From Escherichia phage Turkey5, in sequence record PQ471516.1: a stretch of DNA of 64,000 nt. The stretch is one strand, 5' to 3'. Position 1 is the stretch's first letter; each line of letters opens with the position of its first letter. Under the pieces are notes generated by a model. That model saw only the letters and a list, made by a program, of their open reading frames with translations. It was not told where the DNA came from and did not search any database. The position numbers were made by a program, and so were the translations under genes. Below, piece after piece: positions 24,181 to 25,163 of the stretch.

Positions 24181-24798
24181 ATGACAGCAGCCGACAAGTA
24201 CTGGTGGATTTACAACCACGCCTCATTCGTCAACAAAGATTTAGTATATCCAAAGATTGAGATTGAACCACATAACGTATGCCCTGATACCAATCGCATT
24301 GAAGACCATGAATATCTAAATACAAAGGTTCAGTACTGGGTAGAGTTGATGACCCCTGAATTCGATGAAGATTCACAAAACTGGATTCTTTCACACGATT
24401 ATCAGTTAGATTGTGGCGGCGATACATTTGAAGAAGCAATTGATGCATTGTACAATAAGGTTTTGGAACGTTACGGTACATACAAACAAGAAGATGCAGA
24501 TGCTTTATTTGATTCATTGTTTAAAAAATCATCACAGCCAAATCCAGCATACCAGCAATTTAGCAATCCACATGAACGATTGTACAGTGCTAAGTTTCTG
24601 TTGTTGAATTACGATGACAAGTTCTCGCTGATTGATAGCATAGATACTCGTAAAAATACAATAAAGTCCTTGCAGAAGTACATTGCTTCTTGTACAATAG
24701 AGCAATCAGAGAAAGCAAAGATTGCATTAGAAGATGAAGAATGTTTGCTTTGGTTACAAGAACTATCACTTAAAACAGGCGTGGATTTATTACTATGA
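24181..24798 (+). CDS. hypothetical protein
   Basis: internal start MTAADKYWW chosen; 205 aa. Confidence 0.4.
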   Translation: MTAADKYWWIYNHASFVNKDLVYPKIEIEPHNVCPDTNRIEDHEYLNTKVQYWVELMTPEFDEDSQNWILSHDYQLDCGGDTFEEAIDALYNKVLERYGTYKQEDADALFDSLFKKSSQPNPAYQQFSNPHERLYSAKFLLLNYDDKFSLIDSIDTRKNTIKSLQKYIASCTIEQSEKAKIALEDEECLLWLQELSLKTGVDLLL

Positions 24799-25163
24799 AC
24801 AGTAAACTGGAAAAACTAATTGAAGAACTTCGACGGATGCCACCAATTGAGCAAGTTGGCAATTACAAGCGTTATCGCGTTATAGCACGAGCACTGGATA
24901 AGAAAGGTCGAGTACTGGCAACTCGTACCAACTCTTATACACAAACTCATCCTAAACAGAAAGGGTTTGCGATTCGTGCTGGACGTCCACAAGGTGAGTT
25001 TCTTCATGCTGAAATTTCATGTTTACTGGCTGCACGGGCTGATGTACATACACTGTTGATTGCACGAGTGAGTAAAGATGGCATTCCAGTCCCAGCCAAA
25101 CCATGTGAGATTTGCACTTTAGCTATTCAAGAATATGGAGTGAAAGAAATTATTCACACATGA
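24795..25163 (+). CDS. small cytidine-deaminase-fold zinc protein
   Basis: HAE ... PCEIC zinc-binding deaminase signature in 122 aa. Confidence 0.5.
   Translation: MNSKLEKLIEELRRMPPIEQVGNYKRYRVIARALDKKGRVLATRTNSYTQTHPKQKGFAIRAGRPQGEFLHAEISCLLAARADVHTLLIARVSKDGIPVPAKPCEICTLAIQEYGVKEIIHT

Follow-up and report, generated by a model that had tools for sequence, protein, structure and literature searches.

The 64,000-nucleotide stretch of Escherichia phage Turkey5 analyzed here (sequence record PQ471516.1, referred to below as the window) encodes, besides a T4-type dCMP deaminase (Cd), a second and smaller protein of the deaminase fold. Judged by its sequence, this mini-deaminase is a genuine zinc deaminase, maintained by selection and with an intact catalytic centre, that belongs to a distinct clade termed the mini family. 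Its coding sequence lies at 24795..25163 on the plus strand, as do all window features given below, begins with ATG and specifies a protein of 122 aa (13.7 kDa, pI 9.8; MNSKLEKLIEELRRMPPIEQVGNYKRYRVIARALDKKGRVLATRTNSYTQTHPKQKGFAIRAGRPQGEFLHAEISCLLAARADVHTLLIARVSKDGIPVPAKPCEICTLAIQEYGVKEIIHT). The initial annotation had proposed a second, minimal deaminase on the basis of an HAE...PCxxC signature in a protein smaller than Cd, and the proposal holds: the chain is 122 aa in length versus 158 aa for Cd, and the catalytic glutamate and all zinc ligands are kept. H71-A72-E73 (codons 25005..25013) provides one zinc ligand together with the glutamate that acts as catalytic proton shuttle, while P103-C104-E-I-C107 (codons 25101..25115) contributes the two cysteine ligands where helix 3 begins, both being assigned by motif and by alignment. 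Pfam model PF00383 was matched at 29.5 bits, above its gathering cut-off of 25, and PHROG 174, "dCMP deaminase", was matched with an E-value of 7e-13. A six-frame motif scan of the window returned zinc-deaminase signatures in the mini-deaminase and Cd only, and the motif match to deaminases goes beyond chance. In the profile comparison suggested with the initial annotation, the equivalog models ComEB (NCBIfam TIGR02571) and TadA (NCBIfam NF008113) gave no match to the mini-deaminase, and the tetrameric cytidine deaminase (CDA) model TIGR01354 stayed below its cut-off.

Comparison with the orthologue of the Asteriusvirus PBECO4, with which the mini-deaminase shares 84% DNA and 96% protein identity, gave a ratio of nonsynonymous to synonymous substitution rates (dN/dS) of 0.023; strong purifying selection acts on the gene. 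The protein is not a decayed fragment, because family members keep a conserved length and dN/dS is as low as 0.02. Neither fragmentation nor loss of the catalytic glutamate, the two defects against which the initial annotation had to be checked, applies, with E73 present. Origin as a fragment or pseudogene of Cd was ruled out by the same conserved length and dN/dS together with an identity of only 24% to the window Cd.

Residue conservation was derived from an alignment of approximately 160 family members, from an independent alignment of 81 sequences (A2) and from a further alignment (A1). In the first of these, the family signature comprises A31, D35, G38, N46-S-Y-x-K50-T-H52-P53-x-Q55, A59 and G63 in the N-terminal part, and L70-H-A-E73, R91, G96, A101-x-P-C-x-x-C107, A110 and [YHF]121-[TS]122 in the C-terminal part, with E73 conserved in 100% and H71 in 99% of the members. 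In A2, H71, E73, P103, C104 and C107 are invariant, A72 is conserved in at least 90%, and all 81 of 81 members match PF00383; in A1, H71, A72 and E73 are all invariant. The phiKZ homologue gp260 (locus L002, 4998..5357) carries HSE in place of HAE in helix 2. With catalytic and zinc-binding residues invariant over hundreds of clusters, a protein without catalytic function, be it a remnant or a regulatory subunit (for instance one that modulates Cd or the protein of 205 aa encoded upstream), is very improbable. Inactive paralogues, such as Tad3 and the N-terminal domain of CDADC1, lose the glutamate, which is the opposite pattern. The truncated fold, translational coupling to the conserved 205-aa open reading frame (ORF) in Rak2-like phages and a position directly beside a canonical Cd in IMG/VR loci L061 and L062 would be consistent with such a subunit, but the 205-aa partner is confined to one phage group.

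The AlphaFold2 model of the mini-deaminase (pLDDT 91.2, pTM 0.83) contains strands at residues 28-34, 40-45, 86-92 and 118-121 and helices at 3-14, 53-61, 72-80 (HAE) and 105-114 (PCxxC). The core of the superfamily (helix 1, strands 1-2, helix 2, strand 3, helix 3 and strand 4) is present. The chain stops at T122, one residue past strand 4, and is thus a four-strand core without strand 5 or helix 4; the model has neither a parallel strand 5 reached via helix 4 nor an antiparallel hairpin. Truncation is a family trait rather than a local accident, since the C-terminus lies within three residues of the T122 position in 43% of the mini family. Another 46% carry a tail of 10-14 residues, "TDxGxxxExxx", which in the one member modelled (P0049, 143 aa; AlphaFold, pLDDT 88) forms a CDA-like beta4-beta5 hairpin. 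Loss of the C-terminal element was described by Iyer et al. 2011 (PMC3239186) for some toxin clades only. In the mini family, pocket closure is most likely achieved through oligomerization.

The canonical enzyme of the window, Cd (13071..13547, 158 aa, pI 6.1), has a GYNG motif, a long stretch inserted after strand 2 and before helix 2, and C-terminal helix 4 and strand 5. It scores 78.9 bits against PF00383 and 73.8 bits against TIGR02571 and is 41-44% identical to the cd products of T4-like phages. Alignment of the mini-family profile with this protein by hhalign (probability 96%, E-value 3.8e-9) paired mini-deaminase residues 8-122 with Cd residues 7-130. The Cd insert of 17-20 residues, which bears the second zinc and allosteric site, is absent from the mini-deaminase, as are cysteine ligands in that region, and the K-T-H-P-x-Q helix (53-61) stands in its place.

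The favoured function, put just short of an even chance, is that the mini-deaminase acts on a free deoxycytidine nucleotide (dCMP, dCDP or dCTP) as an unregulated, open-site enzyme that feeds dTTP synthesis. When the profile of the 81-sequence family alignment was ranked against solved structures in the PDB, the best relative was the dCMP deaminase of cyanophage S-TIM5 (PDB 4P9C, 138 aa; E-value 1.8e-9 over profile positions 6-120), which is likewise phage-encoded, small and set in a nucleotide-metabolism context. It was followed by a Mycoplasma tRNA deaminase (1.4e-7), Streptococcus mutans dCD (2HVV, 1.7e-6), human DCTD (2W4L, 1.4e-5) and T4 Cd (1VQ2, 6e-5), with weaker matches to TadA proteins (approximately 1e-3), PBCV-1 bi-DCD (7FH4, 1.4e-3) and Bacillus subtilis CDA (0.01). 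The closest solved relatives by sequence are proven dCMP deaminases, which argues for a deoxycytidine nucleotide as substrate. With the dCMP deaminase clade the mini-deaminase shares the HAE/PCxxC zinc chemistry, the asparagine at the end of strand 2 and V-x-Y at the end of strand 4. It differs from that clade in the absence of helix 4, of the parallel strand 5 and of the insert with the second zinc and allosteric site, in being basic rather than acidic, and in an extra loop between strand 3 and PCxxC that is preceded by a conserved arginine.

Residues of T4 Cd that reportedly contact the deoxycytidine are Val24, Asn40, Ala105, Glu106 and Pro131 (PMC12697855). Asn40, Ala105, Glu106 and Pro131 correspond to N46, A72, E73 and P103 of the mini-deaminase, each conserved in 95-100% of the family, and these equivalents likewise point to a deoxycytidine nucleotide; at the position equivalent to Val24, position 32, I or V is the commonest choice in the family and Turkey5 has R32. 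N46 (codon 24930..24932, 99% conserved) closes strand 2 and opens the motif N-S-Y-x-K-T-H-P-x-Q. R91 (codon 25065..25067, 98% conserved and family-specific) lies at the end of strand 3, before the extra loop of approximately 10-11 residues (with G96 and A101) that is not found in canonical dCMP deaminases, and is a candidate phosphate ligand. The conserved K50, H52, Q55 and R91, together with a median family pI of 9.6 (9.8 in the Turkey5 protein versus 6.1 in the window Cd), would fit an anionic ligand.

Under the favoured interpretation, the ORF product would be catalytically active: a zinc-dependent pyrimidine deaminase of the hydrolytic type, belonging to a phage-borne mini clade within the CDA superfamily, that converts dCMP, dCDP or dCTP into the corresponding deoxyuridine nucleotide. 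K50, H52 and R91 may bind the phosphate, and, with the C-terminus missing, the site may be open enough to accommodate additional phosphates. The elements with which Cd shuts its site and recognizes the phosphate are missing from the mini protein, and any of the three phosphate states may be preferred. A precedent suggests that C-terminal shortening can shift this preference: Dcd_PBS1 is 14 C-terminal residues shorter than T4 Cd and is specific for dCTP, while bacterial relatives prefer dCDP. PBCV-1 bi-DCD and mSCD-B5 likewise act on triphosphates, and recent work has found the CDA fold to switch readily between dCMP, dCDP and dCTP. Unlike the mini-deaminase, Dcd_PBS1, PBCV-1 bi-DCD (7FH4), mSCD-B5 and human CDADC1 are proteins of 140-190 aa that retain helix 4 and strand 5, and Dcd_PBS1 also retains the second metal site; sequence similarity of the mini family to CDA-fold dCTP and dCDP deaminases is weak. 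Next to Cd, which is under allosteric control, the proposed activity would provide an extra, unregulated route to dUMP and onward to dTMP, and such a second dU/dT route would account for the coexistence of the mini gene with a regulated Cd or Dcd.

Structure comparison gave a different emphasis, with tetrameric cytidine deaminases and blasticidin S deaminase as the top Foldseek matches in the PDB. These enzymes resemble the mini-deaminase in size (100-140 aa for CDA-like proteins) and in the loop between strand 3 and PCxxC, which is more like that of CDA than that of the dCMP deaminases. Furthermore, the beta4-beta5 hairpin of the tailed relatives, unlike the helix 4 and parallel strand 5 of the dCMP clade, is the feature that defines the CDD/CDA division (Iyer et al. 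2011), and TIGR01354 finds a weak match over residues 68-118. A CDA-like salvage deaminase of the nucleosides cytidine and deoxycytidine, probably a homotetramer in which neighbouring subunits complete the active site, is nevertheless rather unlikely. The TIGR01354 match reaches 13.7 bits against a cut-off of 113.65, and B. subtilis CDA, at an E-value of only 0.01 in the PDB ranking, falls well under the dCMP deaminases. Where CDA has CAE, PCGxCRQ and a glutamate at the end of strand 5, the mini-deaminase has HAE, PCEIC and no strand 5, and it lacks the N-x-E ribose motif; the basic pI, like the conservation of K50 and R91, points to a phosphorylated ligand.

Basic charge, an open site and the similarity to tRNA deaminases would also suit a polynucleotide deaminase that edits C (or A) in tRNA, mRNA or single-stranded DNA (ssDNA) of the host or phage, for takeover or to blunt defence. 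This function is considered unlikely, although somewhat less so than nucleoside salvage. The highest sequence affinity is to mononucleotide enzymes, and the protein has no extension for binding RNA or DNA. TadA/Tad2 proteins combine EPCxMC with C-terminal helices that bear a tRNA-contacting Phe (Iyer et al. 2011), whereas the mini-deaminase has AKPCEIC, no C-terminal extension and no match to the TadA model; loops of the APOBEC type are absent as well. An untargeted ssDNA mutator would harm a 350-kb genome, yet purifying selection is strong in these lytic phages. Polymorphic-toxin deaminases (MafB19, SCP1.201/DddA, BURPS668_1122) are C-terminal domains of large secreted proteins that are paired with an immunity gene, in contrast to the stand-alone protein of a lytic phage; no immunity or targeting partner was found, and PF14437 scored 12.7 bits with a cut-off of 27. 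Among defence models, neither PADLOC nor NF041025 (dCTP deaminase) matched the mini-deaminase. The suggestion in the initial annotation that a small phage deaminase may serve DNA modification or anti-defence found no specific support, with no PADLOC match, no partner of toxin or defence type and no thymidylate-synthase homologue in cis. It is similarly rather doubtful that the mini clade, with a core of approximately 96-122 aa and four strands, represents the smallest natural active enzyme of the CDA fold and acts on polynucleotides or on a pyrimidine immune signal.

A non-canonical small molecule was also considered as substrate, such as a 5-methyl- or 5-hydroxymethyl-dC nucleotide, an immune signal of the cyclic pyrimidine type, for example cCMP, another base or an antibiotic analogue; in the case of 5-methyl-dC, methylated DNA would be recycled directly to dTMP. 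At the end of strand 4, position 121 is Y, H or F in the mini family, Tyr in most members and His (H121) in Turkey5, and its equivalent in CDADC1 (Y457) adjoins cytosine C5. Phage PF00383 enzymes that prefer 5-methylcytosine (5mC) exist, C5-cytosine methyltransferases are encoded by Rak2-like and Asteriusvirus phages, RaK2 DNA contains methylated cytosine, and the fact that a canonical Cd or Dcd is also present speaks for a substrate of another kind. On the other hand, the hallmark of 5mC-selective enzymes, a thymidylate-synthase homologue in cis (70% versus 6%), is missing, no link to Pycsar or CBASS and no defence or anti-defence neighbours were found, and the idea is speculative; it is judged improbable, slightly more so than nucleoside salvage.

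Base composition and expression are consistent with the favoured deoxycytidine-nucleotide function. The window has a G+C content of 36.4%, phiKZ has 36.8%, and the median over 75 IMG/VR loci that carry the mini gene is 38%. The host of Turkey5 has approximately 51% G+C. An additional supply of dUMP may serve to rebalance nucleotide pools in a phage of 36% G+C, far more AT-rich than its host. For RaK2, values of 32% for the phage and 57% for its host have been reported (PMC3622015). In phiKZ, a primary transcription start site of its own serves gp260 early in infection (PMC8244752). Both the AT-rich carriers and this early start count in favour of the deoxycytidine-nucleotide function. Gp260 is the sole zinc deaminase of phiKZ, which also encodes a dCTP deaminase of the dUTPase fold (gp214), ThyA, DHFR and Tmk; that the mini-deaminase is the only dU-forming enzyme of phiKZ was ruled out by gp214.

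Nucleotide-metabolism genes lie near the mini gene in several independent lineages, a minority of the total, and count for the same function. In the window, the anaerobic ribonucleotide reductase NrdD (26206..28008) begins approximately 1 kb downstream of the deaminase, in a synteny also found in PBECO4, RaK2 and GAP32, and is followed by a DUF4326 protein (28016..28345, 87.8 bits) and by NrdG (28389..28793), the radical-SAM activase of NrdD. NrdD and NrdG occur within 1-3.5 kb after the mini gene in all Rak2-like phages, and GAP32 has a thymidylate kinase nearby as well. The corresponding interval between NrdD and NrdG of RaK2 contains genes annotated as vs.6 and nrdA.1 homologues. In one IMG/VR lineage, represented by 13 loci, genes for NrdA, NrdB and glutaredoxin lie upstream of the mini gene, and another lineage has ThyX near it. 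The upstream ribonucleotide reductase large subunit of locus L037 (2114..3364) and 12 related IMG/VR loci carries an intein (Intein_splicing match). In L061, the mini gene (7622..7975) is followed by a canonical dCMP deaminase of 152 aa (7944..8402) with a 32-nt overlap, and L062, of the same lineage, is arranged likewise; the two enzymes, standing side by side, are probably non-redundant. Clustering of the ORFs from the 75 IMG/VR loci and a Pfam scan of 150 neighbouring ORFs, drawn from 17 lineages, revealed no universal gene partner, and no neighbour family was present in more than 3 of the 17 lineages. Loci L012-L024, L032 and L052, which form one lineage, place the mini gene near a cassette of amidoligase, COOH-NH2 ligase, class-II GATase and class-I GATase. 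This set is a known phage cassette.

The immediate neighbours are more restricted in distribution. Upstream, the 205-aa ORF (24181..24798; PHROG 16370, no Pfam or PADLOC match) ends in a stop codon that overlaps the deaminase start codon (ATGA). PBECO4, RaK2, GAP32 and six IMG/VR loci (L006-L011) all retain the overlapping pair, which was present in every Rak2-like phage examined and not outside this group. Downstream, the start codon of a 74-aa ORF (25160..25384) overlaps the deaminase stop codon, again as ATGA. Since this ORF is found only in Asteriusvirus relatives, it is neither a conserved partner nor a split-off C-terminus; provision of the missing C-terminus by the overlapping ORF was further ruled out by RaK2, GAP32 and phiKZ, in which the downstream genes differ or do not overlap. 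The interval between the deaminase and NrdD also encodes a predicted membrane protein of 120 aa (25400..25762, PHROG 4915) that is conserved in Asteriusvirus. A terminator-like hairpin with a T run at 26043..26065, identified by consensus match only, may divide the block of small ORFs that includes the deaminase from the NrdD-NrdG block. With two further intergenic hairpins with T runs (22124..22141 and 28799..28817), it brackets a block of approximately 12 small ORFs (22.2-26.0 kb, deaminase included) and the NrdD-DUF4326-NrdG block; the number of such hairpins is not above shuffle expectation.

The window belongs to a jumbo coliphage of the genus Asteriusvirus and shares 98.8% identity with Escherichia phage vB_EcoM_JNE01 (355 kb), a member of the same genus. 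Orthologues of the mini-deaminase occur in PBECO4-like coliphages (93-97% identity), in Klebsiella phage RaK2 (72%) and, at 52-58%, in GAP32, CBB, Serratia BF and jumbo phages of Erwinia, Yersinia and Xanthomonas, with phiKZ-like Pseudomonas phages (gp260) at 32% and further homologues in Aeromonas phages and T4-like cyanophages. When 1.84 billion representative proteins were searched by profile, 3950 clusters reached E<=1e-3 and, at the stricter limit of E<=1e-10, 883 remained; lengths range from 96 to 166 aa among the best 150 clusters. The family accounts for 195 records in the phage collection as well as the 75 IMG/VR loci, while in 185,579 species genomes only 2 short contigs of metagenome-assembled genomes carried it, in a search whose narrow pattern makes this weak evidence. 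By this weak test, the mini family looks largely phage-borne. Some database copies labelled "Escherichia coli" (P0002 and P0010), which lie on contigs of approximately 350 kb, are almost certainly jumbo-phage genomes within bacterial assemblies.

Homologues such as phiKZ gp260, GAP32_134, CBB_135, RaK2 ORF518 and S-SCSM1 gp111 are labelled "dCMP deaminase" or "hypothetical protein" in databases, the former label resting on the PF00383 match alone; GAP32_134, a "dCMP deaminase", is noted as "similar to phiKZ ORF260". The presence of two deaminases in one phage is already known at the annotation level, because two deaminases are recorded in GenBank and the CBB genome paper lists two CMP/dCMP deaminases. 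Literature searches returned no functional study or assay of phiKZ gp260 or any other mini-family member. The family is thus known to databases under loose names, and the literature searched contains no description of its truncated architecture.

If the mini-deaminase does act on deoxycytidine nucleotides, large AT-rich phages would run two parallel routes from dC to dU, one under feedback control (Cd, or Dcd in phiKZ) and the other minimal and probably unregulated, which would matter for the way in which phages remodel dNTP pools and for the success or failure of bacterial defences that deplete dCTP. If polynucleotides or an immune signal were instead the target, the result would be a host-takeover or anti-defence activity new for jumbo phages, phiKZ-like phages and cyanophages, and a very compact scaffold for base-editor engineering, a field in which very small deaminases are sought. 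Whatever the substrate, a deaminase fold of four strands and approximately 100 residues is maintained under strong selection, and with hundreds of clusters in the mini family a single study of its biochemistry would provide annotation for a large set of phage genes now listed as "dCMP deaminase" or hypothetical.

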